Shown in pieces: positions 3,597 through 19,729 of a stretch of DNA of 20,000 nt. Under the pieces are notes generated by a model that was not told where the DNA came from, searched no databases, and was given only the letters and a program-made list of their open reading frames with translations. A program made the translations under genes and the position numbers. Position 1 is the first letter of the stretch; each line of letters starts with the position of its first letter. This DNA comes from an uncultured virus (IMG/VR IMGVR_UViG_3300034106_002919) (Duplodnaviria; Heunggongvirae; Uroviricota; Caudoviricetes), in the IMG/VR virus record IMGVR_UViG_3300034106_002919. One strand, given 5' to 3'.

Positions 3597-3608
3597 AGAT
3601 TGGAGTGT

Positions 3609-3636: not shown

Positions 3637-3643
3637 TACTATT

Positions 3644-4156
3644 ATGAAAAACATTGTTTTAGACCTTGATGGCGTTATTGCTGATATCGCTTATGGGCTT
3701 AATAAAGTTCTGAAAGATAAGGTTGATTATTCTAAATGGTTGATTGAAGATAATTGCGATCAACAAGCTTTGGATATATTTGGTAATCCTTTGTTTTGGA
3801 AAAATCTTAAACCATTTGAAGATGCTTGGCATCAAGTAAACTATTGGTTTAGTTGTAATTATGACGTTTATGTTGTAACTGCTAGAAGAACCGATGCCTC
3901 AATGAGCAATACAGAAACTTGGCTTGATTCTTGGCGTATCAGCACAATGCGACCAATATTTACCAATATTGGAGAAAAGCATACTGTTATTAAAGAACTC
4001 AATCCAGTATTTGTAGTTGAAGATAATCCGAATGAAATTGCGATTCTAGAGAATCACGGAATCAACTGCTACATGCGTAATGCATGGTATAATCAGGACA
4101 GAAAAAAAGAATTTAAGAATATTGACACACTTTACGAATTGAGAATAAATGACTGA
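3644..4156 (+). CDS. HAD-superfamily 5'(3')-deoxyribonucleotidase-like phosphatase
   Basis: Motif I DLDGVIAD, motif II VVTAR, Lys (GEK), motif IV VEDNP, C-terminal AWYN. Confidence 0.85.
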   Translation: MKNIVLDLDGVIADIAYGLNKVLKDKVDYSKWLIEDNCDQQALDIFGNPLFWKNLKPFEDAWHQVNYWFSCNYDVYVVTARRTDASMSNTETWLDSWRISTMRPIFTNIGEKHTVIKELNPVFVVEDNPNEIAILENHGINCYMRNAWYNQDRKKEFKNIDTLYELRIND

Positions 4157-7100
4157 TTTTGTTCATCTTCATTGCCATAGTGAATACTCACTGCTTGATG
4201 GAATGTCAACACCAACAGATATTGCAAGAATTGCTTCAACTAACGGACAATACGCTGCTGCTATTACAGATCATGGAACAATGGGAGGATTCTTAAAGTT
4301 TCAGAAAGCCTGTGAGTCTCATGCTGTTAAGCCTATCTTTGGTGTAGAAGCATATTTTGTTCCATCAGTGATTAGTGATGGTGAAGGTAAGCATGAGAGA
4401 TTCCATCTTATCCTTCTTGCTAAGAATGATGAGGGATTGAAGAAGTTGTTTAAAGCATCTCAAGTAGGATGGGCTAATAACTTTTATTATAAGCCAAGAA
4501 TTGATTTTGAACTACTTGAAGACTTAGTTGATAATGACATTGTTGCACTCTCTGGTTGTATGGGTAGTGCAATTTCTAAGGCAATCACGGCAGACAATTC
4601 TGCAAGAGCAGAGCAGTTGGCTGAAAGGTTTGTGTCTATTTTTGGAGATGACTTTTACTTTGAGACACAGGCATGGAACCCTAAGAAATTAAATGATGGA
4701 CTTATCTCTCTTGCTGAATCTTTTAATAAAAAAGTAGTAGCGACTGCTGATTGCCATTTCCCAACTTATCAAGACAGAGGAGCCGAAGAGGTTCTTCTTC
4801 TTGTTTCGCAGTACCCAAGTTTTAACGCTCCAGAATTGAGAAGAGCAAGAGATAACAATTCTGTCTGTCAAGATGGAAGTATTGATATTATTGACAAAAT
4901 GAATGCAATGTACCCAGATAGACATTTGCGTTTTGATGAAATCAATCCTTATATTGCACCTGCTTCTGACATTACTGAGTGGTTTAAGAAAGCTGGTTAC
5001 GACAGAACAGATATTCTTGAGAATACGATTGAAGTTGCAGATAAATGTACGGCAAAGATGCCTACAAAAAGAAATCTTTTGCCAAAGTATTCTAAGTTTA
5101 CTGACTCAGCATCTTATCTAAAAGAGATTGCTGACTTTGCAATTAAACAAAGAGGCCTTGGTCAAGAGTATAAAGAACGTCTTGATGAAGAGATTAAAAT
5201 CATTAATGATTTAGGTTTTGCAGACTACTTCTTGATTGTATGGGATCTTGTTCATTGGGCAGATGCCAATAATATTGGTCGTGGTACTGGTAGAGGATCT
5301 GTTGGTGGAAGTGTGCTTGCATTTCTTCTTGATATCTCAAAGGTTGACCCAGTTAAGTACAGCCTGTTGTTCTCAAGATTTATTAATCCAGAGAGAAACG
5401 ACTATCCAGACATTGACTTAGACTTTGAAGATAAGCGCAGACACGAAGTTAGAAACTATCTCAGAGAACGATGGGGTGAAGACAATGTAGCAGCAATTGC
5501 TACATATGGAGAATTTAAGCCCAAGTCTGTTATTAAAGACGTATCTAGAGTGTATCAAGTTCCATTTGAAGAAATTAACAGCATTACACCATTCTTTGAA
5601 ACACTACAAGAACTAGAGTCATCACCTAGGGGTAAGTCGTTTATGACAAAGTATCCCGACATTATGAAGATCTCTAAGAAACTTGAAGGTCGTATTAGAA
5701 ATACAGGCGTTCATGCTGCTGGTATGGTTGTATCTTCTATACCATTAACAGAAGTATGTCCTGTTGAAACAAGGAAGGAAACAAACCAAGACGGTAGATT
5801 CCTTGTTACTGCTTTTGATATGGATGATGCAGAAGCAGTTGGTCTTATTAAGGTTGATATTCTTGGTCTTAAAACTGTTTCGGTTATTAAAGACTGCATT
5901 GCCAAGATTAAAGAACTTTATGGTGTTGATGTATCAGAAGTTTCACTACAACTTGACGATCCTAAAGTATACGATAATTTTAATAAAGGGAATACTGTTG
6001 GAGTATTCCAAGCAGATGCTGCTGCTTATAGAAACCTAATTGACCGAATGGGTATTGATAACTTTAATGACCTTGTAGTTAGCAACGCACTAGTTCGCCC
6101 TGGTGCTCTTCTATCTCAGGGGCAAGATTATATCAACAGGAAGAAAGGCATTGATAATCCATCTTATGCACATCCTCTTGTGAAAGACATTCTTGAAGAG
6201 ACATACGGAACTGTAATTTTTCAGGAACAACTTATGCAAATGGCAGTTATTCTTGCCGACTTCTCTTGGTCAGATGCTGATAAGCTTAGAAAAATTATTG
6301 GTAAGAAGCGAGATGCTAATGAGTTTGAACAATTTAAAGAGAAGTTTGTAAACAATCAATACTTAACAAGAAAGCAGTCTGAGAAGATTTGGGCAGACTT
6401 TGAATTGTCGGCTCTATATATGTTTAATAAGTCTCACGCAGTTGCTTATTCAATGCTCTCGTATCAGACAATGTGGTTGAAGATTAATTATCCAGCAGAG
6501 TTTGTATGGTCGCTACTTTATAATGAAGAGGCTACGGACAAAATTACTGCTTATCTAATGGAAGCACAGAGGCTAGGGGTTAGTATCCTGCCTCCAGATG
6601 TAAATCTTTCTGATGAGTATTTTACGATTGATAAAGGCAACGGAATTAGATTTGGTCTAAAAAATGTTGCTTCCTGTGGTAACTCTGCAATTAAAGAGAT
6701 CTTAAATAAAAGACCTTTCTCTTCTTTTGATGAGTTTAATAACAAGTGTACAAAAACTGCTGTTAAGAGTAATCTTAGAGAAAATCTAGATAAGATTGGT
6801 GCATTTGAATCTCTTGGTCATGTGTCGCAGTTTGACCATAAGAAATATTACTTACCAATTCTTGGCTTTGCTATTGACGATCTTGATTCAAATAATGAAC
6901 TTGATGAAATGGTAGGAAATATATCTGAGTTCCATGAAATCAATTCTGAGCTAACTTTGGTTAAGGCAATTGTTAGATCAACTAAGAAAACACCACAGTA
7001 TCTTAGAGTAGAGTTTGAGGATAAATCAGGCTCTTGCACCTTGTTCGCTGATAGAAATGCAGAGATAGCCCAAAGAGACTATATGTATGCTCTTATTGGA

Positions 7101-7538
7101 GATAGGACTATCCATACATTCTGTGATGCATACCATTATCATGATACTGAGTTGTATGACATTATGATGATGAAAAGAAATGGGACTAACCATCAATACA
7201 GTTGGCTCTATGATCATGGCCTTGGCTTTGTAGAAGATGAAAAGTGTCTACTTAATATCTTTAGTGCTAGAAAGTTTACAACATCAAAAGGTAAAGAGAT
7301 GGCAAACATCTATGCCTTTGATGGGAAAAAGATTGTAAAGATTGTACTCTTCTCAGCAATATGTAAGAAAGTATATCCACAGATTAAATTAGGTCAGTGG
7401 TATGCAGCTAAACTAGAAAAGATTGATGATAGAAACAATTTAACAAGAATTGACTCTTATAAACTAACTAGCGATCAAGCAATTATTACTGCTGATAGTT
7501 ATATTCAAAGAAAGGGTCTAGTAAAGAGCAATGTTTGA
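4149..7538 (+). CDS. dnaE: DNA polymerase III alpha subunit (DnaE, family C)
   Basis: PHP HLHCHSEYSLLDG, ITDHG, GRGSVGGS, catalytic PDIDLDF, HAAG, KVDILGLK, FQEQ, FNKSHAVAY, LPPDVN, FGLKNV HhH. Confidence 0.97.
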   Translation: MTDFVHLHCHSEYSLLDGMSTPTDIARIASTNGQYAAAITDHGTMGGFLKFQKACESHAVKPIFGVEAYFVPSVISDGEGKHERFHLILLAKNDEGLKKLFKASQVGWANNFYYKPRIDFELLEDLVDNDIVALSGCMGSAISKAITADNSARAEQLAERFVSIFGDDFYFETQAWNPKKLNDGLISLAESFNKKVVATADCHFPTYQDRGAEEVLLLVSQYPSFNAPELRRARDNNSVCQDGSIDIIDKMNAMYPDRHLRFDEINPYIAPASDITEWFKKAGYDRTDILENTIEVADKCTAKMPTKRNLLPKYSKFTDSASYLKEIADFAIKQRGLGQEYKERLDEEIKIINDLGFADYFLIVWDLVHWADANNIGRGTGRGSVGGSVLAFLLDISKVDPVKYSLLFSRFINPERNDYPDIDLDFEDKRRHEVRNYLRERWGEDNVAAIATYGEFKPKSVIKDVSRVYQVPFEEINSITPFFETLQELESSPRGKSFMTKYPDIMKISKKLEGRIRNTGVHAAGMVVSSIPLTEVCPVETRKETNQDGRFLVTAFDMDDAEAVGLIKVDILGLKTVSVIKDCIAKIKELYGVDVSEVSLQLDDPKVYDNFNKGNTVGVFQADAAAYRNLIDRMGIDNFNDLVVSNALVRPGALLSQGQDYINRKKGIDNPSYAHPLVKDILEETYGTVIFQEQLMQMAVILADFSWSDADKLRKIIGKKRDANEFEQFKEKFVNNQYLTRKQSEKIWADFELSALYMFNKSHAVAYSMLSYQTMWLKINYPAEFVWSLLYNEEATDKITAYLMEAQRLGVSILPPDVNLSDEYFTIDKGNGIRFGLKNVASCGNSAIKEILNKRPFSSFDEFNNKCTKTAVKSNLRENLDKIGAFESLGHVSQFDHKKYYLPILGFAIDDLDSNNELDEMVGNISEFHEINSELTLVKAIVRSTKKTPQYLRVEFEDKSGSCTLFADRNAEIAQRDYMYALIGDRTIHTFCDAYHYHDTELYDIMMMKRNGTNHQYSWLYDHGLGFVEDEKCLLNIFSARKFTTSKGKEMANIYAFDGKKIVKIVLFSAICKKVYPQIKLGQWYAAKLEKIDDRNNLTRIDSYKLTSDQAIITADSYIQRKGLVKSNV

Positions 7539-8148
7539 TTTAATTATTAGCGATAGCAAATGGTCTGAATCGCATGGTGCTGAAGGAAACCATCTTGGAA
7601 TGGGAATAATGTATTATGCAATTCCATATGTTCTAAAAGCACAGCATTGTGTATGTCTAGGATCTGGCGCTGGTTTTGTTCCTAAATTAATGCACCGCGC
7701 ACAGTCTCAATTGATAGAAGAGAGCATTATTTCTTCTCATAAAATTACATTAATTGATGCCAATATTGGACCTTGGGGACTTCCAGTTTATCAGGAAGGG
7801 ATTGATGGTTATCCTGAAATTACTTTAATAAAGTCTATAACAGACGATGCTGTACAACTTGTTGACAATATTGACTATCTACATGTTGATGCAGATCATA
7901 CATATGACCAAGTACTTAATGACTTTAATAATTATTTATCAAAAATGAATGGTGATAACTGGGCAATAACTGTTCATGATACATATAATTTTAGCGATGC
8001 AGATCATCCACCAATTGGTTCTTACCAAGCTGCTATTGATTTCTCGCAAGCAAATGATTTATATTTTACAAATTTTAGAATAGGTTGTGGTACTGGATTA
8101 ATTATGCCAAGGAGGAAATTTGAAACGCTGGGAATATTTAATTTCTGA
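7531..8148 (+). CDS. class I SAM-dependent methyltransferase (Methyltransf_24-like)
   Basis: CVCLGSGAGF glycine loop, TLID, IDYLHVDADHTYDQVLNDF and ITVHDT match the DxxHxY..D/HD signature. Confidence 0.8.
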   Translation: MFDLIISDSKWSESHGAEGNHLGMGIMYYAIPYVLKAQHCVCLGSGAGFVPKLMHRAQSQLIEESIISSHKITLIDANIGPWGLPVYQEGIDGYPEITLIKSITDDAVQLVDNIDYLHVDADHTYDQVLNDFNNYLSKMNGDNWAITVHDTYNFSDADHPPIGSYQAAIDFSQANDLYFTNFRIGCGTGLIMPRRKFETLGIFNF

Positions 8149-8608
8149 ACAATATAAAATTAGAAAAATTATTGCTTCACATTATTTATCTTCATGTGAC
8201 AATGTGATTGATGTTGGTAGTTATGGGGAGCATTTAATTGGGATTGATGCCAATAAACTACATTCTATTGATCCACTAATGTCAATTCCTGATTCTTTTC
8301 ATGGAACATTTTCCGAATGGCTTAGTCGTAATCAAAACCTATATGGAACAATAGGTGTAGCAATTCTTGGTTTTGATATAGAGGGTGATGGAGAATATGA
8401 AGAACTACTATCTTTTTTAAAAGGAGTAGATACCATTGTGCTAGAATATGCTATGGAGTTTGAGCCATCAGTGCAACAATCAAAGCATTTAATGAGTCAA
8501 ATTCCACATAAGGTTGAAACTGTAATCAATCTAGAGTTACCAGAAGTGAAAACAGAAGGTTTCCCAACATACAGTAAAAGAAAAATTACTATTTTGAAAA
8601 GAGGATAA
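8120..8608 (+). CDS. small SAM-methyltransferase-like protein
   Basis: TTG start, VIDVGSYG motif I, SIDP motif II-like, VLEY; minimal Rossmann-like pattern. Confidence 0.5.
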   Translation: MKRWEYLISEQYKIRKIIASHYLSSCDNVIDVGSYGEHLIGIDANKLHSIDPLMSIPDSFHGTFSEWLSRNQNLYGTIGVAILGFDIEGDGEYEELLSFLKGVDTIVLEYAMEFEPSVQQSKHLMSQIPHKVETVINLELPEVKTEGFPTYSKRKITILKRG

Positions 8609-9523
8609 ATGTTAGTAGTAGATAAAAGAAAAGGCGATACAATGCCTCAACATGAGATTATTAAGACCCCAAGTCTTGGTCTTAACAGAGCTCTTGGTGG
8701 AGGTCTTTATACAGGTGCAACCCATCTATTTTGGGGAACGCCATCGGTTGGTAAAACAACTATGTGTTTCAGAATTATTGCAGAAGCCCAAAAAATGGGC
8801 TACAGGCCAGTAATTATTGATTCAGAATATTCTTATAGAGATGAATATGCAGCAAAGTGTGGAATTAACACAGAGGATGTTGTTATTATTCAATCAACAG
8901 TTGTTGAAGATATTCTTAAGAATGTTCATCCATATCTTACACACGAAGATGAAAAACATATCTTTCTGTTTGACTCACTATCAAACATCATTAAAGAAGA
9001 ATTTTATGACAAACCAGAAGGTGGTAAAGCAATGGGTCTTCAGTCAAGAAGTCAGGGCTTCCTTCTTCAAAAATTGGTTAATTATCTTCATAAAGAAAGA
9101 AACATTATGCTGTTTGTAGCCCATCAAACCATTGATCTAAGCGGAATGTATGCTGTTACAAAAGCAAAGATGGGTAATACTGTTCATCACAATATGCATA
9201 ATATTGTAAAATTGTTTTTGTCAATGTCTCAGAAAGAGATGGACCGTGATGAAACAAATAAGATTACAAGTCAGAGAGCAGTTTGGACAATTGAAAAGAC
9301 AAAGCAGATTCCTACAATTGGATCATCTGGTTATTATTATGTCCTTCCGCAAGAGGGAAAGATTGACACAGAGAGAGAGTTGATTGATATTGCTGTTGAA
9401 ATGGACATTATCCAGAGAAGAGGTGCTTGGTTCTCTTTTAATGAAGAAAAGTGGAACGGCATGAGCAAGATTGAACTAAATGACTCTCAAAGAGAAGAGA
9501 TTATTAAACTTATTAATGGTTAA
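8609..9523 (+). CDS. recA: RecA/UvsX-like recombinase
   Basis: LNRALGGGL, Walker A GTPSVGKTT, IDSE, Walker B FLFDS, C-terminal IIQRRGAWFSF; GAGGA SD upstream. Confidence 0.92.
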   Translation: MLVVDKRKGDTMPQHEIIKTPSLGLNRALGGGLYTGATHLFWGTPSVGKTTMCFRIIAEAQKMGYRPVIIDSEYSYRDEYAAKCGINTEDVVIIQSTVVEDILKNVHPYLTHEDEKHIFLFDSLSNIIKEEFYDKPEGGKAMGLQSRSQGFLLQKLVNYLHKERNIMLFVAHQTIDLSGMYAVTKAKMGNTVHHNMHNIVKLFLSMSQKEMDRDETNKITSQRAVWTIEKTKQIPTIGSSGYYYVLPQEGKIDTERELIDIAVEMDIIQRRGAWFSFNEEKWNGMSKIELNDSQREEIIKLING

Positions 9524-9526
9524 GTA

Positions 9527-10774
9527 ATGCTAATCTCTCTTCACACAGATCAGCATATTAAGGATGCTGTAAATATATTTGGCTATGCCTACGGATATAA
9601 TAGAATTTGTAAACATTTTAATAAGTTTGTTTATAGAAATCAAAAACTAAATGTAGTTCAAAATTCACCAGAGGCAAGGGTTCAAATGTTTTATATGGAA
9701 CCTGAATGGTATAACCTAGAAACAATGACCAGCTTTAGAGCGCCAGGTTTTCGCAAATTTTATGATCATCAATATAAAATATATGGGACTCATTTAGAGT
9801 CTACACAAGCATGGCCTCATTGGATTGAGTCAATGAATCAGGTTGATGAAATATGGACAGGTAATCAGTTTGCAGCAAATGCTGTAATTGAATCTAAAGT
9901 TAAGACTCCTGTTTATGTATTTGAGCATGGAATTGATGACGGATGGACTCCTAAAATGCGTGGAAAAGGGTCTAAAATCCGTTTCCTTCATGTTGATTCT
10001 GGTAGCCCAAGAAAGAGGGCAGATCTTGTTGAAAAGGCATTTTTAACCCTTTTTAAAGGCAATACGGATGTTGAACTAACACTTAAATACCACAGTCATG
10101 AATATGATGGTGGTTTTAATGTTCTGGATTTATTTAATGATAATAAAAATGTTAAAAAGATCTATAAGACAGTAACTCATGAAGAAATGGTTGAACTATT
10201 TCATTCTCACGATGTTCTTGTATACCCATCAGAAGGTGAAGGTTTTGGTTTTATTCCTCTTCAAGCGTTAGCGACAGGAATGCCAACAATATCAACTGGT
10301 AGATGGTGCTCGTATGAAAAATACATGCCAGGAAATATTATAGATTCTAAACTTGGAAGAACTACATATACTGGATATGAGTATGGAGATGTGGTCCTTG
10401 CAGAGTTTGATTCTCTTGTGCAACTTATGGAAAACGCTTATAAAAATATTAATTCACAAGCAGAGTTCTATTATAAGCAAGCACCAAAAGTTTATAAAGA
10501 ATACAATTGGCAAGGTAGATGCGACACTTTTTTGAAATCTTTTATTAAAAGAGTCGGTATCAACATGCTCAAGCCAGATGAATCAAAGAGAGAGCCTGGA
10601 AAGAAATTGATATACTTTAAATCAGGAGTCGCCTTCTGCACCCATTCGGGAGTAAAATTTGATCAAAGCAATAGGCTTCAAGAAGTTCCTGAGTTTGAAT
10701 TTGATAATTTACTTAGTCAACCAAATTTTAGAGAACCTTCTGAAGAAGAAATAATTAAACACAGGGGGTATTAA
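9527..10774 (+). CDS. GT-B fold glycosyltransferase (GT4-like) with C-terminal extension
   Basis: DEIWT, EHGID, FLHV..RK, DVLVYPSEGEGFGFIPLQALATGMPTI, YNW. Confidence 0.9.
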   Translation: MLISLHTDQHIKDAVNIFGYAYGYNRICKHFNKFVYRNQKLNVVQNSPEARVQMFYMEPEWYNLETMTSFRAPGFRKFYDHQYKIYGTHLESTQAWPHWIESMNQVDEIWTGNQFAANAVIESKVKTPVYVFEHGIDDGWTPKMRGKGSKIRFLHVDSGSPRKRADLVEKAFLTLFKGNTDVELTLKYHSHEYDGGFNVLDLFNDNKNVKKIYKTVTHEEMVELFHSHDVLVYPSEGEGFGFIPLQALATGMPTISTGRWCSYEKYMPGNIIDSKLGRTTYTGYEYGDVVLAEFDSLVQLMENAYKNINSQAEFYYKQAPKVYKEYNWQGRCDTFLKSFIKRVGINMLKPDESKREPGKKLIYFKSGVAFCTHSGVKFDQSNRLQEVPEFEFDNLLSQPNFREPSEEEIIKHRGY

Positions 10775-11073
10775 TGAAGAGAGATGAAAAACAAGAAATT
10801 AAAAAAGATAAAGCAAAAGCAGTAAAAAACTCTGGTCGTGGTTTTAAGAAAGGCGATGCAACATTTCATGAATTTGTTTTAGATTACAAACATAATGGTG
10901 CAAGTTTTACATTAACTAGAAAAGCTTGGCTAAAGATGAGAAAAGATGCTTGGAACTCAAACTATAAACATGCTTGTATTTCAGTTGTTCTTGGAGAAGA
11001 TTCTGATGTGAAGGTTGCTATAATTGACTGGCAGGTATTTAAAGACCTTATTGAAGGTTCTCAATATGAATAG
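10774..11073 (+). CDS. small PD-(D/E)XK nuclease, probable Hjc-type Holliday junction resolvase
   Basis: NSGRG..KGDA...VLDYK pattern; 99 aa; TAATG coupling to the upstream gene. Confidence 0.6.
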   Translation: MKRDEKQEIKKDKAKAVKNSGRGFKKGDATFHEFVLDYKHNGASFTLTRKAWLKMRKDAWNSNYKHACISVVLGEDSDVKVAIIDWQVFKDLIEGSQYE

Positions 11074-11236
11074 ATCTTACATGGACCCAGAACACACAGA
11101 GCATCTTCTTGAAATTAAAATTAAACAAATTCAAGATGAACTTAGAAAAAATTATGAGCAAAGAAGTTTTCTTAATATCTGCTTAAGCGATGCTATAAAT
11201 GAACTTGCATTGTTTAGATCTAAGAAAGGCTCATAA
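11066..11236 (+). CDS. small coiled-coil hypothetical protein
   Basis: ORF 11024..11236. The ATG at 11066 overlapping the upstream gene end is the more likely start. Confidence 0.55.
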   Translation: MNRSYMDPEHTEHLLEIKIKQIQDELRKNYEQRSFLNICLSDAINELALFRSKKGS

Positions 11237-11711
11237 TTTGAAACCAGCAAACTTTCCCATAAAGTCTTCAGAACTTAAGTGGTTAAAAGCTTGTACAATG
11301 CTTGGAGAAATATTTTCAACTTGTTCAAGAAGAAAATATTTTGCAGTAATCTTAGCAGAAAATGGGCGTGTATCAGGTATTGGATATAACGGTGCTTTGC
11401 CTAATTTAAAACATTGTATTGACGGAGGATGCCCTAGGGCTTTTACTGATGTTGAGCATGGTTCAAATTATGACAACTGTGTAGCAGTACATGCAGAAGC
11501 AAATGCTTTGCTTTGGTCTGATAGAACAATGAGGCAAAGTGGAACCTTAATTATAAATGGTCCTCCATGCTTTAGTTGTGCAAAACTAATTGCAACATCT
11601 GGTATTTCAAAAGTTCTGTGTTTGAGAGATGATGAGTATAAAAATTTTGATCAAGTTGAAAAGCTGCTTAAAGAAGCGGGTATATTTTTAGGAGTAATTG
11701 ATGAAATCTAA
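11199..11711 (+). CDS. dCMP deaminase (zinc-dependent deaminase)
   Basis: STCSRRK, GYNG, HAEANA, PPCFSCAKLI. Start uncertain (TTG at 11238 possible). Confidence 0.9.
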   Translation: MNLHCLDLRKAHNLKPANFPIKSSELKWLKACTMLGEIFSTCSRRKYFAVILAENGRVSGIGYNGALPNLKHCIDGGCPRAFTDVEHGSNYDNCVAVHAEANALLWSDRTMRQSGTLIINGPPCFSCAKLIATSGISKVLCLRDDEYKNFDQVEKLLKEAGIFLGVIDEI

Positions 11712-11955
11712 AGTTTTAAAAATGATAAAAATGAAAAGATATTTCTTCATTAGATCGCTATTAGAAGAAATCTATTTAGAAATTGATTCTTTGGAGCGTT
11801 TGGCGAAGAATCACAAGGTTGTCTCTGATACACTAGCGAGCACCATATGCGAAATTGTTGAACACAGTTCGCCATCATGGGTAAGTAAGATGAAGCAGTT
11901 AGGTATAGATCAAAAGATACAAAAGTCTATGGAGACATATGAACGAACAAGGTAA
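11698..11955 (+). CDS. hypothetical protein
   Basis: 85-aa ORF with GGAG upstream, overlapping both neighbours. Confidence 0.6.
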   Translation: MMKSKVLKMIKMKRYFFIRSLLEEIYLEIDSLERLAKNHKVVSDTLASTICEIVEHSSPSWVSKMKQLGIDQKIQKSMETYERTR

Positions 11956-13246
11956 AACATTTGGAAGCCTATTTGCAGGAGTTGGTGGTTTTGACATTGG
12001 TTTAGAAAACGCTGGCTGGAAATGTGAATGGCAAGTTGAATGGGATAAGCATTGTCAAGAAGTACTTAAAAGACACTGGCCCGACATTCCTAAGTATCTT
12101 GATGTTCAAGATGTAGATGGAACAAAAATTAAGCCAGTAGATATGATTACCTTTGGTTCACCTTGTCAGGATTTATCTGTCGCTGGTAAGCGAGCAGGTC
12201 TTGATGGCGGTCGTTCAGGTATGTTTTTTGAAGCAATTAGAATAATCAAGGAGATGCGTAATGCAACAAATGGAGAATATCCAAAATGGGCAATCTGGGA
12301 AAATGTACCAGGTGCCCTCACAAGCAATAAAGGAGAAGATTTCGCAGAAGTCATCAACCAAATGGCAAACATCGGGGCATTGGCAATTGAATGGCATGTC
12401 TTGGATGCACAATGGTTCGGAGTCCCCCAGAGAAGAAGAAGAGTATTTGTCATCGCTTGTTTTGATTCTGCAACCGCTGAAAGATGTGGAACACAAATAT
12501 TACCTGTCCCCGAAGACAGCGATGGGAATATTAAGAAGAGCAGAAAGAAAAGGAAACACTATGCCAGAACCATTGAGACAGGCTCTGATAGACCTGTCCT
12601 CTACGATAAATCAGGATATGGAAAGTGGTCAGAAGGCGGAGTAAGTCTATCCGCTAGTGATTATAAAAGACCAGAAATGAATTTCATCCTTGAACCATAT
12701 GTCAAGGTTGTTAGATCTGGTGCAAGAGATGCAGAAGGTAATTTACCAGCAGAAGTTTGGAGAACAGAAGATATTAGTCCAACTTTAAATGCTTTTGATA
12801 ATACTGGCGAGTCTAGAGCGACAGTCATGATTGTTGATGGAACAAGAGTTAATGATGTTCGTATTTACGAAGATGGAATTATGCCAACTCTAAAACATAG
12901 GATGGGTACTGGTGGTGGACAAGTCCCATTGGTAGGGATTTCTGATGGGGATAAAACATACTCTTTCCATATTAAGCAAGATCCAATATCTGAAAAAAAT
13001 ACATCAATATGCATCACCGAACAAATGGGTGTAGGAGTAGCAATTCCAAGTGAATATACACCAGAACTTGTATTGCGTAGACTCACTCCTCTTGAATGTG
13101 AAAGATTAATGGGATTCCCAGACAATCACACAGAGTTTGATTCAAATGGTAAAAAGATTGCCGATACAAATCGTTATAAGATGTGTGGTAATGCAGTAGC
13201 ATCACCAGTAGCAGAATGGATAGGGAGGCACTTAATTGGATATTAA
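11939..13246 (+). CDS. C5 cytosine DNA methyltransferase
   Basis: Motif I LFAGVGGF, IV GSPCQDLS, VI WENVPG, VIII PQRRRRVF, IX RRLTPLECERLMGFP, X YKMCGNAV; GGAG SD. Confidence 0.95.
   Translation: MNEQGKTFGSLFAGVGGFDIGLENAGWKCEWQVEWDKHCQEVLKRHWPDIPKYLDVQDVDGTKIKPVDMITFGSPCQDLSVAGKRAGLDGGRSGMFFEAIRIIKEMRNATNGEYPKWAIWENVPGALTSNKGEDFAEVINQMANIGALAIEWHVLDAQWFGVPQRRRRVFVIACFDSATAERCGTQILPVPEDSDGNIKKSRKKRKHYARTIETGSDRPVLYDKSGYGKWSEGGVSLSASDYKRPEMNFILEPYVKVVRSGARDAEGNLPAEVWRTEDISPTLNAFDNTGESRATVMIVDGTRVNDVRIYEDGIMPTLKHRMGTGGGQVPLVGISDGDKTYSFHIKQDPISEKNTSICITEQMGVGVAIPSEYTPELVLRRLTPLECERLMGFPDNHTEFDSNGKKIADTNRYKMCGNAVASPVAEWIGRHLIGY
12261..12644 (+). CDS. nested alternate-frame gene, M.EcoHK31I beta-like MTase partner polypeptide
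   Basis: +1 frame inside the MTase; AAGGAG at 12248-12253, 7 nt before the ATG. The C-terminal part SSLVLIL..KYYLSPKTAMGILRRAERKGNTMPEPLRQAL resembles beta-type polypeptides nested in C5-MTase genes (recognised from memory). Confidence 0.7.
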   Translation: MQQMENIQNGQSGKMYQVPSQAIKEKISQKSSTKWQTSGHWQLNGMSWMHNGSESPREEEEYLSSLVLILQPLKDVEHKYYLSPKTAMGILRRAERKGNTMPEPLRQALIDLSSTINQDMESGQKAE

Positions 13247-13472
13247 ATTTCTTGTTGGATGGAGTATTGGTATTAGTAACTTTATACTTACAGTCTATTT
13301 GTATAGAAAACAAAATATTACAAAATATAAAAATGTAATTATAAAATACAACCAAGCTTTGAACAAGTATGACAAAACAATTCAAAATCAAGATTGGCAA
13401 GCATTGCCAGAGGTAGAAAAAGAACTTGATGAAGCAATCAACAATGTAAGGAGTATTACAAATAATGAGTGA
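13236..13472 (+). CDS. small protein with N-terminal transmembrane helix
   Basis: TTG start with GGGAGG SD; hydrophobic FLVGWSIGISNFILTVYLY followed by a basic/coiled-coil tail. Confidence 0.65.
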   Translation: MDIKFLVGWSIGISNFILTVYLYRKQNITKYKNVIIKYNQALNKYDKTIQNQDWQALPEVEKELDEAINNVRSITNNE

Positions 13473-13680
13473 TCCAGCATTTTTTGAGTTATTAAAACTC
13501 TTGGAAGAGTCTGAAGCAGAACTTGAATTAATTAAAGGAGATTTGGAAAACTGGAAATATGTAGCAGATTTATTTGCATCATTTTATGACCATAGAACAT
13601 CTAGTACTCAAATTAATACAAATCTTTCTGAAGCATATGGCATATATATTAAACTAAAGGAACTAGATGAGCGAAAATGA
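13465..13680 (+). CDS. hypothetical protein
   Basis: 71-aa ORF with AAGGAG SD, overlapping both neighbours. Confidence 0.65.
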   Translation: MSDPAFFELLKLLEESEAELELIKGDLENWKYVADLFASFYDHRTSSTQINTNLSEAYGIYIKLKELDERK

Positions 13681-13819
13681 TCTTAATAAACTTTTCTTTT
13701 ATGAGGGAAAAGTAGAGCAGCTTCTTGTTGAAAAAGAAAAGTTGCTTATTAAAATTAAACTACTTGAAGATGAAATTACACTATTAAAGTCAAGACTTTC
13801 TTCTTATCAAAGCAGATAA
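13667..13819 (+). CDS. 50-aa coiled-coil protein (not in ORF track)
   Basis: MSENDLNKLFFYEGKVEQLLVEKEKLLIKIKLLEDEITLLKSRLSSYQSR*; AAGGA upstream; fills the gap; leucine periodicity. Confidence 0.65.
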   Translation: MSENDLNKLFFYEGKVEQLLVEKEKLLIKIKLLEDEITLLKSRLSSYQSR

Positions 13820-13824
13820 TAAAA

Positions 13825-14040
13825 ATGCTTTGGTCTTGGATTCTTGGCATACTTGGGGTAACTGGTCTTTGGCTTGCTGGCAAACAAGTTTGGTGGGGCT
13901 GGTTGATTACCCTAATAAATGAAATTTTATGGATAACTTACGCTATTGCTACAGAGCAGTATGGATTTATCTTTATGGCCATATGTTATGCTATGGTCTA
14001 TCTTAGAAATGCGATTGTAAATAGGAGATTAAATGATTAA
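13825..14040 (+). CDS. PnuC-like three-helix membrane protein
   Basis: Three hydrophobic segments with WSWIL..GLWLAG...WWGW..NEILW..YA....YGF pattern typical of phage PnuC-like small proteins. Confidence 0.6.
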   Translation: MLWSWILGILGVTGLWLAGKQVWWGWLITLINEILWITYAIATEQYGFIFMAICYAMVYLRNAIVNRRLND

Positions 14041-14134
14041 GGAAATTGGATACTTTATTTGGATGTTCTCAGCGGTGACAATTTTGACCGTTGTTGTGCT
14101 AAACTATCTTGATAAAAAGAGTAAAGGAGAATAA
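14033..14134 (+). CDS. 33-aa single-pass membrane peptide (not in ORF track)
   Basis: MIKEIGYFIWMFSAVTILTVVVLNYLDKKSKGE*; AGGAG SD; TAATG coupling to the next gene. Confidence 0.6.
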   Translation: MIKEIGYFIWMFSAVTILTVVVLNYLDKKSKGE

Positions 14135-14454
14135 TGCCAGACATTATTGTTGATATTGATTGGCTATCTTCACAAATGGGTGAAGATGCCGAAGAATTTA
14201 TTGAGTGTATGAAGATTGTAGATGACATTATCAACAATCCAAATCACTATGTAGGAGGACAGGCTATTAAGTACGCAAACATTTTGGCAGCATATAGAAC
14301 CAAAATGATTGTTAAGTCTCAAGCATTTAAACGCCGATCATCTATGATGACGGAGAAAGATAAGACGGTAAATGATATATGGAAAACCATGTATGAAGCA
14401 CTTGCCGAAAATATTAATGTTCTTAAACTGGCCGCTAAAGGCGGTTATAATTGA
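14134..14454 (+). CDS. hypothetical helical protein
   Basis: 106-aa ORF with AAGGAG SD, directly upstream of the Cas4-like nuclease. Confidence 0.75.
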   Translation: MPDIIVDIDWLSSQMGEDAEEFIECMKIVDDIINNPNHYVGGQAIKYANILAAYRTKMIVKSQAFKRRSSMMTEKDKTVNDIWKTMYEALAENINVLKLAAKGGYN

Positions 14455-15191
14455 GAGCTTTTAATGCTTTAAGAAATCCAGTCCCTAAAGAAGAAAAGAC
14501 TGATCCTGTAATAAATGATGCAGAAGTCGCTGAAGAACTTGTTAAGTCTATTAATCAATCGTTTGAGAAGAGAAATGTTGAATTTGAAAAAAAAGTTGAT
14601 GGTTTTCATCCTAGTTACACAAATCAGTGCTCTAGATATTGGTACTACATCTTTCAAGGCGTAAATGTAATACCATCGTTTTCTGCACAGACATACCGTA
14701 TTTTTGATAACGGTCATGCTGTTCACGAACGCATATACTCATATTTTAGGGAAATGGGGATACTTGTAGCAGAAGAGATTCCTGTAACTTATGAAAATCC
14801 CCCAATTACTGGCACTGCTGATGGTATAATTGACTTTCACGGAAAGAAATTGATTGAACTAAAATCAATATCTACAGAAGGTTTTGAGTACAGAAGAATA
14901 TATAACAAGCCAAAAGATGATCATTATAGGCAAGCACAAATCTACTTGCGCTGCTTGGATCTAGAAAGTGCATTTGTAATTTATGAAAACAAGAATAATC
15001 AAGACATTCTGCCAATCCTAATTCATAGGGATGAAAAATTTATAGATAATCTGTTTAAGAAATATACAGATATCTATACTAGGTACAAGGAGTCAAGAAT
15101 GCCAAAGCGACCATATAAGCAAACATCGCCAAAATGTACATCTTGTGAACTGTACCAGTATTGCTGGGCAGACGAAAATGGCGGTTCATGA
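14451..15191 (+). CDS. Cas4-like / PD-(D/E)XK exonuclease
   Basis: HPS...QCSR, GHAVH, GTADG, IELKS, QAQIY and C-terminal CTSC-x5-C (split four-Cys cluster); TTG start. Confidence 0.85.
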   Translation: MRAFNALRNPVPKEEKTDPVINDAEVAEELVKSINQSFEKRNVEFEKKVDGFHPSYTNQCSRYWYYIFQGVNVIPSFSAQTYRIFDNGHAVHERIYSYFREMGILVAEEIPVTYENPPITGTADGIIDFHGKKLIELKSISTEGFEYRRIYNKPKDDHYRQAQIYLRCLDLESAFVIYENKNNQDILPILIHRDEKFIDNLFKKYTDIYTRYKESRMPKRPYKQTSPKCTSCELYQYCWADENGGS

Positions 15192-15486
15192 GGTAAGAGT
15201 TTGTGCAAATGAAGATTGTTATACTGGCTTTATTGCAAAGTCTTATAACGCTATATATTGCTCGGCAGAGTGTAGAAAAATCTGCACTAATAAAAAACTT
15301 TTAGAGAAATATCATGAAAACAAAAATCAAAAAAATAAAAAAAGAGTTTGTAAAACTCAAAGTTGTTCAACAATTCTTTCACGATATAACAAAGAGAATA
15401 TTTGTGAAAGTTGTAAAAACGAAAGGTTCATCAAAAGACTTGTATCTTGGGGCTGGGATGAAGAAAAACTCAGAAGAGAACCATGA
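15178..15486 (+). CDS. cysteine-rich zinc-finger protein
   Basis: CANEDC...YCSAEC and CKTQSC...CESC (eight Cys). ORF is open from 15145; the ATG at 15178 is the more likely start. Confidence 0.7.
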   Translation: MAVHEVRVCANEDCYTGFIAKSYNAIYCSAECRKICTNKKLLEKYHENKNQKNKKRVCKTQSCSTILSRYNKENICESCKNERFIKRLVSWGWDEEKLRREP

Positions 15487-16055
15487 GCCTCAAGAATATA
15501 ATGAGAGCAAAAAATGCATGGGAAAATGTTCTTGCAATTGACCCCGCATCTCACTCACTAGCATGGGCGGTTATTAATCGCAATAAAGAGATTGTTGAGA
15601 CTGGAAAGATTGATCTATCTAAATTTAAAGATGTTTCTGTTAAGTTTGAATCAATTCAGTCTGGTATCAAAGATATTCTTGAAAAACACACAATTGATTA
15701 TGCTGTAATTGAACAGTCTGTCTATATTCAAAACTTTCAATCAAGCAGGATTATTTCTTACATAATTGGCTTTACTTGGGGAATTTTAAATGTCTACGGA
15801 GTAAAGACTCAAGATGTTAGTCCTCTAATGTGGAAGCCTGGTATTGGATATAAGAATGTAACAAAGAAAGATCAGGTAGAACTTGAAAAGAACGGAGAAA
15901 AAGGTTCAATACAAATCAAAATGAAAAACGAAAGAAAGCAGAGAGTAAGAAGCATTGTTTGCGCTGCTTTTGGAAACGAAATTGATGGTATAGACGATGA
16001 TGATATTGTTGACGCAATTGGTATTGGTCTGTGGTATCATTTAACGCATGGCTAA
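15483..16055 (+). CDS. ruvC: RuvC-like Holliday junction resolvase
   Basis: LAIDPAS..LAWA, AVIEQ, P..WK, DDIVDAIGIG; the acidic tetrad is present. Confidence 0.85.
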   Translation: MSLKNIMRAKNAWENVLAIDPASHSLAWAVINRNKEIVETGKIDLSKFKDVSVKFESIQSGIKDILEKHTIDYAVIEQSVYIQNFQSSRIISYIIGFTWGILNVYGVKTQDVSPLMWKPGIGYKNVTKKDQVELEKNGEKGSIQIKMKNERKQRVRSIVCAAFGNEIDGIDDDDIVDAIGIGLWYHLTHG

Positions 16056-16344
16056 CGAACCGTATAAAGACAAGGTGTTCTTGTACGAGATGTATGTTAC
16101 AAGAAGAATGAATTTGACAGATATTTGTAAGCACCTAAAAAAGTCTTACAATATTGAAGTTACACCTCAAGCAATTTATAACTGGGTTAAAAAGCACGAT
16201 CTTCTTAAATATAGGGGTAAAGGTAGAAACTTAAATGCTGGAAGACCAAAACCTGCAAAATCTCCAATGCAAAAAGAGGTTGAGAAAAAAAGAAGAGAAA
16301 TGCAAGCCATAAATAGACAAAGAAAGAAGAAATTTGGAAAATGA
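16048..16344 (+). CDS. HTH DNA-binding protein
   Basis: LTDICKHL...VTPQAIYNWVKKH helix-turn-helix with a very basic tail. Confidence 0.7.
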   Translation: MANEPYKDKVFLYEMYVTRRMNLTDICKHLKKSYNIEVTPQAIYNWVKKHDLLKYRGKGRNLNAGRPKPAKSPMQKEVEKKRREMQAINRQRKKKFGK

Positions 16345-17096
16345 GAAGATTAGTAACATCACAGGATACAGTTACATTTGTAAATCTTGATATGATTTAC
16401 AACAAGGTAAGAGTAATTGAAGCAAAACAGAATGAGACTCAGTTTAAGTGTCTAGGCTCTGGTCTTTGTTGTCGTATTGGGCTAAGAATCCATATGGCAG
16501 AGTGTGCAAATATTGCTTTCAAACTTAGACACAAATATTACCTTACTCTTGAAGATAAAGGTCAACAAGCTGCTGATGATTGGATGAATGAAGTAATTCA
16601 AGATCTAAAAGATGCTATGTATGATAAAGACTGGCAACCAGATGGAGAAACAACTCGCCATTGTGCCTTTTATAAGGGCGGTTGCACTATCTATGAATAC
16701 AGACCAATGGTCTGTAGAACATTTGGAACAATTACAACCGTAGATGATTACTGCCCAAGAATTAGAAATGCTTACGGTTCAATTGATTACTTTAGCGGTG
16801 ATGCAGTTATTAGAGTTATCAAAGAGTTCCAAGATATCCTTAAAGACTACGCAAGCGATAAAGACTACACATACGATATGGTTGTATATATGCCATTAGG
16901 TGTACTAAGTTTCTTGCTTGATACAGAAGAACTTGAAGAACTTGCAAACAATACAGATGAAAAGTTTTGGCAAGGAGTTGTCGGCTGGTACAACTACAGG
17001 GTTCAGTTTACTAAGCAGTATGGTTATTCTTACGATGAACTTGGCAAAGAAGCCGAAGCTATTGGCAATAAACTATCTTTTAATAACGAAGACTAA
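16341..17096 (+). CDS. YkgJ-family (CxxCxxCC) cysteine-cluster protein
   Basis: FKCLGSGLCCR and HCAFYKGGCTIYEYRPMVCRTF motifs. Confidence 0.85.
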   Translation: MRRLVTSQDTVTFVNLDMIYNKVRVIEAKQNETQFKCLGSGLCCRIGLRIHMAECANIAFKLRHKYYLTLEDKGQQAADDWMNEVIQDLKDAMYDKDWQPDGETTRHCAFYKGGCTIYEYRPMVCRTFGTITTVDDYCPRIRNAYGSIDYFSGDAVIRVIKEFQDILKDYASDKDYTYDMVVYMPLGVLSFLLDTEELEELANNTDEKFWQGVVGWYNYRVQFTKQYGYSYDELGKEAEAIGNKLSFNNED

Positions 17097-17109
17097 TTTT
17101 GTTAATTTG

Positions 17110-17118
17110 TGATATTAT
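17110..17118 (+). promoter_or_regulatory. putative extended -10 promoter
   Basis: TG-A-TATTAT in the largest gap between ORF-track genes, just upstream of a strong SD; no consensus -35. Confidence 0.4.
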
Positions 17119-17139
17119 TTTTTGTACGAAAGGAGTGCA

Positions 17140-17220
17140 ATGATCATTAGTCGTGTAACAGAGCGTCTTGTTCTATTTCTAGAATGTGACACTCTCAAAA
17201 TCTATCGGGTTGTATCCTGA
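17140..17220 (+). CDS. 26-aa microprotein / possible leader peptide (not in ORF track)
   Basis: MIISRVTERLVLFLECDTLKIYRVVS*, preceded by GAAAGGAG (17128-17135). Confidence 0.55.
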   Translation: MIISRVTERLVLFLECDTLKIYRVVS

Positions 17221-17231
17221 TACTAAGTAGC

Positions 17232-17256
17232 AGGGGTCCCGAAAGGGACCCCTTTT
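17232..17256 (+). terminator. intrinsic terminator-like hairpin
   Basis: AGGGGTCCC-GAAA-GGGACCCCT with a GNRA tetraloop, followed by TTT. Confidence 0.75.
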
Positions 17257-17263
17257 AAATATT

Positions 17264-18334
17264 ATGAAAATAATTTGGACAAATAATACTAATTCAACAA
17301 TATCTGAAGGTTATGGGTATGCATCACATCATATCTTTAATCAACTTACACAATATCAAGACTTGAACATATGCGATGCAAATGTACAACTTGATACTGA
17401 ACTATCCATGTCTCCTGTAAATTTGGGCTATGCCGTATCCAAGAAGTTTGATTGCGACATTCTAATCAACTGCTCACTACCAGATGCCTATAACAAATGC
17501 GATGGTTATAACATTGGCTTCTCGTATTGGGAGACAGATCAGTTACCCAGAGATTGGGTTATAGAGATGAACAAGATGGATGAGATTTGGACAACATCAC
17601 AATGGGCTAAGAATGTCTTTATTAATTCGGGTGTTACTCAACCAGTCTTTGCCTTTGAATTGGGCGTGGACCCAAAATTATACTATCCAAGTCATCGTGG
17701 GCTTTCTGGCTCCTTTTCTTTTCTTAGCATTGGCTCTCCATCAACGCGAAAGAACTCTCAGATGGTCGTGGATGCCTTTTTAAGCCTGTTTGAAGGTAAA
17801 GAGGGCTATAGATTGATTTATAAAAGTTCTGGACCGCCTGACGCAAGGATTGGGAAAGGATCTGGGAATATGAGGTCGCTTTACGGTCACGAACAAATTG
17901 AGGTTATTGATGATATTTTATCTGACGAAGATTTGGCAAAATTGTATGATAGGGCTAACTGTCTTGCATATCCAACCAGCGGGGAAGGTTGGGGAATGAT
18001 TCCGTTTCAGGCAATTATGAAAGGTATTCCTACGATTTGTACAAAGGCTACGGCTTGTAGAGAGTATGCAGATCTATCTGTTCCTTTAAAGTATAGTTGG
18101 TCAAATAGAAACCTTTTTGGTATATATTCTGGTAATGGGTGTTGGGCTGCACCAAATTTCACCGATTTATGTGATAAAATGCTATATGTAGTTAATAACT
18201 ACAATGATGTTGCCGACTTTACATATAAAAATGCGATGAGTGTCCACGAAAGGTACTCATGGGAGTCGGTCACAAAGGATTATTACAACAGGCTATGTCA
18301 AATATTGAGCAATATAAAGAAAAGACGCTCTTAG
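17264..18334 (+). CDS. GT-B fold glycosyltransferase (GT4-like), paralogue of 9527..10774
   Basis: SEGYG, YWETD, MDEIWTTS, ELGVD, RKN, LAYPTSGEGWGMIPFQAIMKGIPTI, YSW. Confidence 0.9.
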   Translation: MKIIWTNNTNSTISEGYGYASHHIFNQLTQYQDLNICDANVQLDTELSMSPVNLGYAVSKKFDCDILINCSLPDAYNKCDGYNIGFSYWETDQLPRDWVIEMNKMDEIWTTSQWAKNVFINSGVTQPVFAFELGVDPKLYYPSHRGLSGSFSFLSIGSPSTRKNSQMVVDAFLSLFEGKEGYRLIYKSSGPPDARIGKGSGNMRSLYGHEQIEVIDDILSDEDLAKLYDRANCLAYPTSGEGWGMIPFQAIMKGIPTICTKATACREYADLSVPLKYSWSNRNLFGIYSGNGCWAAPNFTDLCDKMLYVVNNYNDVADFTYKNAMSVHERYSWESVTKDYYNRLCQILSNIKKRRS

Positions 18335-18879
18335 ACAAACTGCAAGATGTTGAAGATGCTGGTCTTTTATTCGTAAAGGGTTATAAGTTTTCAGAAATTG
18401 CAGCTTTGCTTTCTATTTCTGTAAAGGATGCGAAAGAGCATGTTGAGGAGTATAAAAAGATTCTCAACCGTCAGGCTGAAGAAGATCCTTACTTCTTAGA
18501 GAAACTTCAGTTTAATACAATTAAAGCCCTCCAAGAGTTTGATCAGATTAGCAAAGAGGCTTGGGAAACAGTTAGTATTGCAACAGATCATGGAATGGTT
18601 GCTGCAAGAATTCAGGCCTTGAAACTTGCTGGTGATATTGCTACAAAGAAAGCCCAATTACACAAGTTGATGGGCGGTAATCAGGCTGATAGTGAATATA
18701 TTGCCAGAATGCAAAGAGCAGAAAGTGTGAACCAGGTTTTATCAAAGGTTCTTAGAGATGTTATTGGTAAGCATCCATTAATTGCTGATGAGGTTCGTAA
18801 AGAATTAGCAATTGCATTTGAAATTATGAATAACGGACAGCCAGAATATGAAGAAGGCGAAGTTATTGAAGATGAGTAA
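18295..18879 (+). CDS. probable terminase small subunit (HTH + helical)
   Basis: KGYKFSEIAALLSIS HTH followed by long helices; lies upstream of the TerL-like ORF. ORF is open from 18259; ATG 18295 preferred. Confidence 0.55.
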   Translation: MSNIEQYKEKTLLDKLQDVEDAGLLFVKGYKFSEIAALLSISVKDAKEHVEEYKKILNRQAEEDPYFLEKLQFNTIKALQEFDQISKEAWETVSIATDHGMVAARIQALKLAGDIATKKAQLHKLMGGNQADSEYIARMQRAESVNQVLSKVLRDVIGKHPLIADEVRKELAIAFEIMNNGQPEYEEGEVIEDE

Positions 18880-19729
18880 AATAACTGACACAATTGATGA
18901 ACTCTTTTATAAAAGATATATGGTCAAAGATTACTCACTAGATGAGTGCATTGACATTACATTTCAAATCTACAACTATGCACAAAATAAGTATCCAAAC
19001 ACAGTAAAAAAACTTCTGATGTTCTCTGGCGGTAATGATTCTCTTGTAATGCTAGATGTTCTAAAAGATCACATTGATTCAGTAGTTCATATCAATACTG
19101 GAATTGGGATTGCAAAGACAAGAGATTTTGTAAGAAAAACTTGTAATAATTACAACTTAGATCTAATTGAAGAAACACCAGACCCAGAAAACTCTTATGT
19201 TGAGTTAATAAAAAGATATGGCTTCCCTGGGCCTGGTCAGCACAGATTAATGTATGCAAGACTAAAAGAAAGACAGATTAGATCTGTCAATAGAAAGTTT
19301 GTAACAAACGGAAGAAAACAACGGGTTCAATTCTTTACTGGTGTTCGCGTTGATGAGTCTTCAAGAAGGTGGAAAACATCAGACGAGATTCATAGAGAAG
19401 GAAGTTTTGTTTGGATTAGTCCACTAATTCACTGGAGTAATGAAAACATGGCTGAATATAAAAAGACAAGAAATCTTCCATTAAATGAAGTCAGCATTAA
19501 CCTGCATATGTCTGGGGAATGCCTATGCGGTTCTTTTGCAAAAAAAGATGAATTTGAGCAAATTAAATTCTTCTATCCAGAAGATGCTGCTTATATTGAA
19601 GAGTTGCAAGAATTGATAAAAGATTGCGATGTTAAATATAAAAAATGGGGATGGAGAGAAGATCACAGGAGAATCAAGAATAGAACTGGTATACTTTGTT
19701 CTTCTTGTGATTTTAATTATGAGTCATAA
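18872..19729 (+). CDS. PAPS-reductase-family (PP-loop) protein
   Basis: MFSGGNDS PP-loop, HINTG, RLKE, TGVRVDESSRR, SPLIHWS, SGECLCG, LCSSC. ORF is open from 18848; ATG 18872 preferred. Confidence 0.85.
   Translation: MSKITDTIDELFYKRYMVKDYSLDECIDITFQIYNYAQNKYPNTVKKLLMFSGGNDSLVMLDVLKDHIDSVVHINTGIGIAKTRDFVRKTCNNYNLDLIEETPDPENSYVELIKRYGFPGPGQHRLMYARLKERQIRSVNRKFVTNGRKQRVQFFTGVRVDESSRRWKTSDEIHREGSFVWISPLIHWSNENMAEYKKTRNLPLNEVSINLHMSGECLCGSFAKKDEFEQIKFFYPEDAAYIEELQELIKDCDVKYKKWGWREDHRRIKNRTGILCSSCDFNYES

Follow-up and report, generated by a model that had tools for sequence, protein, structure and literature searches.

A small +1-frame gene inside a phage C5 DNA methyltransferase gene and its putative role as a second enzyme chain

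We describe here a gene within a gene in the DNA of an uncultured virus of the Caudoviricetes (IMG/VR record IMGVR_UViG_3300034106_002919), of which a stretch of 20,000 nucleotides, the window, was analysed. The window carries a C5 DNA methyltransferase gene encoding 435 residues (11939..13246, + strand), and wholly inside it, in the +1 frame, lies an open reading frame (ORF) for a protein of 127 residues (12261..12644, + strand, stop included). From the pattern of sequence conservation we conclude with high confidence that the nested ORF is a real overlapping gene under selection in its own frame. Its product is probably a small second enzyme chain, supplying an element located after motif VIII which the main chain lacks, as sequence comparison and a model of the complex suggest. 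The principle is known from the methyltransferase M.EcoHK31I, but the split is a different one, as the main chain here retains motif IX, and the arrangement appears to be widespread and unannotated.

The main frame carries motifs I-X of a C5 methyltransferase without interruption. The main chain matches PF00145 over residues 8-432 (E = 1.1e-63, 216.1 bits against a cut-off of 22), with the motifs used to recognise the class (I, IV, VI, VIII, IX and X) all in a single frame. M.HhaI aligns to residues 5-175 and 371-430 of the main chain (E = 1e-29), so motifs I-VIII and IX-X share the main frame. Motif IX reads RRLTPLECERLMGFP (13076..13120, + strand) and motif X is likewise in frame. The nested ORF starts with an ATG 322 nucleotides after the first letter of the methyltransferase gene (12261-11939 = 322 = 3x107+1), which places it in the +1 frame, and it overlies main residues 108-236, that is ENVPG of motif VI, motif VII, QRRRR of motif VIII and the low-complexity text PVPEDSDGNIKKSRKKRKH. 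Main residues 176-235 (12464..12643, + strand) form a linker from motif VIII to the recognition region, which is of low complexity and, judged by codon-position identities, poorly conserved. A Shine-Dalgarno-like AAGGAG (12248..12253, + strand) stands 7 nucleotides before the nested ATG, where the main frame reads the K-E of IIKEMR. An earlier note, made from the letters of the window, had described a 127-codon ORF in the +1 frame across motifs VI-VIII and the start of the variable region, a well-spaced AAGGAG and a main chain that retains motif IX. All of these are found at the coordinates given above, and the peptide text which the note quoted is present. Searches of the nested protein against Pfam and NCBIfam returned no match, and PF00145 was absent as well.

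The nested frame is retained throughout the relatives of this gene. A first set of 80 viral loci (45-100% identity) was fetched with the main-frame protein only and a second set of 80 with the database protein P0019; since P0019 includes the nested text, only the first set is free of selection bias towards the nested frame. Profiles of three parts, namely the enzyme's N-terminal half, the nested protein and the C-terminus, were searched over 163 sources. All 157 loci with the N-terminal half of the enzyme had a nested match in the +1 frame, and at 141 of them the C-terminus was found in the main frame. In each of the 53 distinct genes of the first set whose motif VIII could be located by a simple pattern, the +1 frame is open for 116-159 codons at the nested place, and elsewhere in the same gene it holds 5-30 stops. 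The earlier note had named frequent +1 stops in homologous methyltransferase genes as an observation that would speak against a gene, and they were not seen; stop avoidance in the +1 frame was. When the nested protein was compared with phage records by tblastn, 110 records matched, and every match fell under a methyltransferase gene or a hypothetical protein. The methyltransferase genes of Streptococcus phage Javan261 and Mycobacterium phage Lucky2013 carry +1 ORFs of 129 and 157 codons.

Bacterial genomes show the same picture. The pattern YLSPK[AT][AC]xGI matched 419 stretches (one genome per species), of which the best 80 were analysed as loci. These are mostly from Bacillota, with Alistipes, Bacteroidales, Verrucomicrobiota, a Proteobacteria metagenome-assembled genome (MAG) and Hydrogenedentes also represented. 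At all 80 of them a methyltransferase gene holds the nested motif in its +1 frame, and at none does the motif stand alone. The whole enzyme is in one frame at 69 of these loci, runs off the locus at 8 and has a downstream frame change at 3.

A long open +1 frame could in principle be a by-product of a conserved main frame and codon usage and no gene at all, and one of our tests leaves room for this: when the longest open +1 frame of the whole gene was compared with synonymous shuffles, the observed length was reached by 0-256 of 1000 shuffles across 20 genes, which is too weak to stand alone. A conserved main frame by itself also yields 9-19 bits of +1 likeness. Tests aimed at the nested interval speak more clearly. 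It is free of stops in 0-4.5% of 2000 synonymous shuffles per gene in all 20 genes. With a profile built from 20 nested proteins, the +1 frame of Javan261 scores 86.0 bits and that of Lucky2013 82.5 bits, against a mean of 18.7 and a maximum of 43.9 bits for shuffled Javan261 and a mean of 8.7 and a maximum of 33.4 for shuffled Lucky2013, and none of 300 shuffles comes up to the observed score in either gene. For the C-terminal half of the nested protein (residues 58-112) we compared five distant genes, from a Streptococcus phage, a Mycobacterium phage, Heyndrickxia, an E. coli P1-like plasmid and a Verrucomicrobiota MAG. This half scores 44.8-61.3 bits with shuffle maxima of 5.8-26.9 (0/300 in each), and the N-terminal half outscores the shuffles in four of these genes (0-1 of 300 reach it). 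The likeness in the +1 frame spans AT-rich and GC-rich genomes alike.

Codon positions point the same way. Among 20 representatives of less than 90% identity, compared pairwise, third-position identity in the main frame is 0.65-0.80 within residues 105-220 against 0.38-0.55 outside, and the suppression of synonymous variation that the earlier note had proposed to look for is thus present within the overlap only. In main residues 171-215 identity at position 3 (0.73-0.80) exceeds that at position 1 (0.53-0.62), which means that the +1 frame is better conserved there than the main frame. The suggestion that selection over the low-complexity stretch acts on the nested frame therefore holds, at least for the most part, and +1 conservation is strongest where the main frame is least conserved. 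Taken with the enrichment of Shine-Dalgarno sites given below, these results make the absence of a gene extremely improbable. On the opposite strand, the ORFs 12166-12453 (-) and 12215-12496 (-), of 95 and 93 codons, are also open over the doubly coding stretch, and Javan261 has a 152-codon antisense ORF over the corresponding stretch; such openness is probably a by-product of two sense frames that avoid stops.

The nested ORF has its own start signals. A Shine-Dalgarno match of at least 5 nucleotides stands 4-12 nucleotides before the first ATG in 106 of 181 distinct nested ORFs, compared with 82 of 5982 other ATG triplets of the same genes, an enrichment of about 40-fold at nested starts. 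The protein start M-[DE]-N-I-Q is kept in several clades. In the Bacillota genes a TGA lies four codons upstream of the nested start, inside the main-frame E-M-R codons, which also provide GAGG, and a stop is found 4-5 codons upstream in many genes. These signals bear on an alternative which the earlier note had raised, namely that the +1 frame is reached by ribosomal frameshifting and the nested text is part of a fusion product. Database proteins that look like such a product do exist. In all 12 long matches that we examined (P0019, P0023, P0031, P0033, P0036, P0079, P0086, P0132, P0145, P0147, P0160 and P0162) the nested text is in frame with the recognition region and motifs IX-X, and in P0004, P0007 and P0010 it is joined to the N-terminal half of the enzyme. 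However, the 10 fused proteins that we looked up are all clusters of 1-2 members on 1-3 metagenome contigs, as would be expected of sporadic indels or assembly errors, and this is our own reading of them. Of the DNA loci in which all three parts are present, 210 of 223 have the enzyme in one frame. A fused layout as the common or ancestral form was considered and rejected as common, given clusters of this size and its occurrence at 0 of the 223 DNA loci. A shift out of the main frame would moreover lose motifs VI-X. Because the nested ORF has a conserved ATG and Shine-Dalgarno site of its own, we regard fusion by frameshifting as very unlikely.

Ten viral and phage loci with a frame change were examined (L002, L091, L103, L129, L132, L137, L138, L143, L156 and L162). 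In all ten the nested ORF ends normally and the break comes further on, in the recognition region, leaving two ORFs that overlap by tens of bases with the nested ORF retained. The annotation of Lucky2013 gives a 'DNA methylase' of 279 residues, after which comes a hypothetical protein which holds motifs IX-X. The ten loci could be splits of the kind known from M.AquI, the outcome of recombination between recognition modules, or errors.

What the nested protein may do is suggested by its conserved core. Residues 58-112 (12432..12596, + strand), ..SSLVLILQPLKDVEHKYYLSPKTAMGILRRAERKGNTMPEPLRQAL.., comprise an element with the consensus ..ILE/Q..V..KYYLS.K.., or ..ILE..V.EKYYLS.K.., and then a predicted helical hairpin. 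We made a 43-position profile of nested residues 58-100 and ran it over the three frames around motif VIII in a sample of 32 PF00145 genes from Bacillota genomes. Clear main-frame matches, 29-38 residues after motif VIII, were obtained in L254 (15.8 bits), L260 (14.1) and L263 (9.3), and weak ones in L255 (4.0) and L259 (2.7). In three short enzymes, L244 (17.4 bits), L275 (16.8) and L276 (21.6), the match falls 3-5 codons past motif VIII and in the +1 frame. The element was matched in both frames in none of the 32 genes, the +2 frame never exceeded 1.1 bits, and the maximum over 1920 residue shuffles was 6.9 bits. Among the main chains of the nested type, 0 of 121 distinct sequences reach 5 bits (maximum 2.8), and in the +1 frame 120 of the 121 do. 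In the sequences compared, the element belongs exclusively to one frame or the other.

Single-chain C5 methyltransferases thus include enzymes (L254, L260 and L263, and, by a non-significant match, E. coli Dcm at residues 308-338) with the same text, ..ILQ/LLE..V..KY.[LI]S.K.., after motif VIII. There the element is part of the one chain and lies 29-38 residues past motif VIII, whereas in the nested type it is written in the +1 frame and begins 3-5 codons after the start of motif VIII, overlapping the motif VIII codons. Since the element is in frame in some C5 methyltransferases and in +1 only here, the nested core would be an ordinary enzyme part written in the other frame. The short enzymes L244, L275 and L276 (Bacillota, open frames of 334-453 codons) deserve a separate remark. 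In their main chains motif VIII is followed within about 22-30 residues by a stretch of the type GKTLIQLIGGxQGQRVYS, and their +1 frame carries a shorter element, for example SLIDILETKVPEKYFLSPEAT, and closes a little further on with no GILRRA hairpin. These enzymes could belong to a second lineage of the arrangement or represent a smaller form of it.

In structure prediction, the nested protein folded alone is disordered to about residue 60, and helices at 84-97 and 103-113 are predicted with a local confidence (pLDDT) of about 90. The element itself reaches a pLDDT of 84-96 in the natural fused variant P0019, which includes motifs IX-X, against 57-60 in the nested protein alone. The two chains, co-folded as the earlier note had proposed, were modelled with all 435 residues of the main chain (55-row alignment) and nested residues 36-120 (62-row alignment). 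The complex model passes its controls, with interface scores (ipSAE) of 0.83, 0.75 and 0.84 against 0.00 for the best of three controls; the ipSAE mark is reached by 116 of 157 solved complexes and, among mismatched pairs, by 2 of 215. The runs have at least 72% of contacts in common, and the pLDDT of the partner is at least 73. The predicted interface involves main residues 147-156 and 158-163 (motifs VII-VIII), 180-199 (linker), 376-390 (motif IX), 423 and 427. Nested residues 36-43 (QTSGHWQL; 12366..12389, + strand) are paired with main residues 149-154 of the motif VII strand, on the basis of model contacts only; the pairs 151:40, 150:41, 152:39 and 153:38 (main:nested) have an expected error of 0.5-0.6 A. 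The element's ILQ and YYL (nested residues 69-71 and 80-82) are predicted to contact main residues 383-386 in motif IX, the contact list giving 383-386 with 70-71 and 80. Fold comparison of the P0019 model added little: a wide fold search (VIA) gave a best Z of 4.9, to helical hairpins only, and Foldseek on the PDB gave no match at E <= 0.001, with methyltransferases appearing only via the motif IX-X part.

Together these observations suggest the following mechanism. The nested gene would use its own ATG and Shine-Dalgarno site to produce a protein of 127 residues, with an N-terminal half that is predicted to be mostly disordered and a C-terminal half made of the element and the helical hairpin. 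The element follows the layout hydrophobic-x-x-ILE/Q, a few residues, V-x-x-KYYLS-x-K, and then the hairpin GILRRA..RGK.LP..L..AL. The main chain of the nested type has a variable linker where some ordinary enzymes hold the element, about 30 residues past motif VIII. The small protein would most likely bind the main chain beside motifs VII-VIII and motif IX, and would thereby complete or stabilise the enzyme, giving a two-chain methyltransferase that might need both chains for activity. The idea that the partner supplies the post-motif-VIII element was already put forward in the earlier note, and the in-frame copies elsewhere, the +1 location here and the complex model all point towards it.

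There are several observations that weigh against this mechanism. Firstly, the in-frame likeness is short, with 19-33 aligned residues and 9-16 bits, and the element is clearly in frame in just 3 of the 32 sampled methyltransferases. In 26 of the 32 it was found in no frame, so the element is not universal and its absence alone does not prove that a main chain is incomplete. Secondly, an hhalign comparison with E. coli Dcm gave a single match, of nested residues 64-96 to Dcm 308-338 (the start also falling at 293), which is non-significant (E 0.07-0.1, probability <1%). It sits at the expected place, the main-frame alignment stopping at Dcm 283. Dcm was also tried as a 25-row profile, which added nothing because the relatives in it are 73-100% identical. 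Thirdly, the nested profile found no methyltransferase among the sequences of solved structures; a poly(ADP-ribose) glycohydrolase match from that search (E 0.5) was taken as chance. In the P1-like gene the N-terminal half is not conserved beyond the constraint of the main frame, as 98 of 300 shuffles reach the observed score. Finally, the complex score is a measure of model confidence, obtained with in-house alignments for two chains that are encoded by the same DNA, and the pairing of the 55 and 62 alignment rows may bear on it.

The main rival to a small enzyme chain is a regulator binding the same surface. The nested protein would then be real and enzyme-binding, and would act on the timing of methylation in infection, on specificity or on stability without being a structural part; in a variant of this idea it has a job of its own, such as counter-defence, and the overlap serves only co-expression. 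The complex model suits a regulator and a subunit equally, and the disorder of the modelled N-terminal half is what many regulators show. The main chain holds all ten motifs in one frame, and the sampled ordinary methyltransferases in which we detect no element are presumably active. On the other hand, the conserved core is an element which other enzymes hold in frame at the matching place, and which is exclusive to one frame. The nested motif was also never found outside a methyltransferase gene among the best 80 of the 419 bacterial stretches, and it belongs to no family of known function apart from phrog_16143 ('DNA methyltransferase'), which matches relatives and not the ORF of the window. 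We therefore think a regulator, in either variant, rather unlikely, and prefer the small enzyme chain.

Methyltransferases in two chains have been seen before. M.EcoHK31I was reportedly introduced as an alpha/beta C5 methyltransferase by Lee, Kam and Shaw in 1995. As described in two papers, the beta chain of this enzyme of E. coli HK31 (recognition sequence YGGCCR) is encoded in another frame inside the alpha gene and carries motif IX, and alpha has motifs I-VIII, motif X and the recognition domain (PMC2836561, PMC3404938). One of them reports that N-terminal truncations of beta lower the affinity stepwise and reduce activity without abolishing it (PMC2836561), a behaviour that resembles, as far as this description goes, what a disordered N-terminus and a C-terminal core would give in the nested protein. 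The likeness to our case is that the methyltransferase gene contains, in another frame, the whole coding sequence of a second polypeptide (at 157 of 157 loci here) and that the small chain binds the large one, which is known there and predicted here. The difference, on the same description, is that motif IX is on beta in M.EcoHK31I, whereas here the main chain keeps all motifs and a non-numbered element after motif VIII would be held by the nested chain. The statement in the earlier note that the nested segment looks like the M.EcoHK31I beta class is not borne out in that form: motif IX is in the main chain and none is nested, and it is the published description that sets the two apart. That description also presents M.EcoHK31I as a single enzyme, compared with an arrangement seen here at 157 viral loci and 80 bacterial loci and in 110 phage and 226 plasmid records.

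M.AquI (CYCGRG) is described in PMC3404938 as a two-subunit C5 methyltransferase, split after motif VIII within the variable region; one chain has motifs I-VIII together with a portion of the variable region and the other the remainder and motifs IX-X. On this description it is a natural two-chain enzyme, as the nested type is by our proposal, but there the enzyme is cut in two and here the 435-codon main frame is uninterrupted, with only a short element separate. Ten related loci, the viral and phage ones with a frame change, have an M.AquI-like look, being split inside the recognition region with the nested ORF kept. A literature search without most subscription journals and REBASE found no published description of the nested gene, only M.EcoHK31I and M.AquI, and the passage on P1 dmt in a review makes no mention of a nested gene (PMC12707154).

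The investigation of protein and plasmid databases shows how common the nested text is. The nested profile gave 5125 matches at E <= 0.001 (3733 at 1e-10) among 1.84 billion representative proteins, and in the ESM Atlas only clusters of unnamed hypothetical proteins were found. The profile phrog_16143, with 139 positions, matches the nested proteins of Lucky2013 (5.1e-11), Javan261, P0009 and P0015, which means that some phage annotations already call the nested ORF, but its label implies neither an overlapping gene nor a small subunit. For the window's own nested protein no PHROGs family was found at E <= 0.1, phrog_16143 included. Its matches among plasmids comprise 226 records, 182 from Escherichia and 26 from Salmonella among them, and 223 of the 226 are typed as non-mobilizable. 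They are probably P1-like phage-plasmids, a label assigned by this analysis on the basis of size and gene content. The sole plasmid record opened, E. coli plasmid NZ_CP020522.1, has a 164-codon +1 ORF with the same C-terminal core (L283:2219-2713) inside the coding sequence 1918-3936, and the host gene encodes 672 residues in which a C5 domain is joined to a Dam domain. Some nested-type methyltransferases are long, with open frames of 677-721 residues (L249, L252 and L253). The PF00145 profile aligns to them over only about 3-130 of its 324 positions, so that routine domain searches see them as partial or weak.

In the window the methyltransferase gene is part of a phage replication and nucleotide-metabolism block (650-19729) with every gene on the + strand. 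The block includes a DnaB-like helicase, a primase, a single-strand-binding protein, a polynucleotide kinase and a UvsX-like recombinase, and it also encodes a 1129-residue DNA polymerase, Holliday junction resolvases, a Cas4-like exonuclease and a PAPS-reductase-like gene. Two glycosyltransferases are found in it, at 9527-10774 and 17264-18334, and a dCMP deaminase gene (11199-11711) lies directly upstream of the methyltransferase gene.

A broader proposal, which we offer tentatively and which may well turn out to be too broad, is that the C5 methyltransferases of phages, prophages and plasmids comprise a large class of obligate two-chain enzymes, the E. coli P1-like dmt among them. Their post-motif-VIII element would have moved into an overprinted +1 gene, and the small subunit could be titrated, which would give a hidden control over the timing of methylation. 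If the small chain is needed, many methyltransferases that are annotated as one gene, also those of P1-like phage-plasmids, would yield two proteins. Cloned 'orphan' methyltransferases might then work or fail with the survival of the hidden frame after codon optimisation, since the nested gene is lost when the main frame is recoded. Few same-strand overlapping gene pairs of bacteria and phages would be as widespread and ancient, and this one would be a clean natural case of a protein fragment that has shifted into another frame of its own gene.

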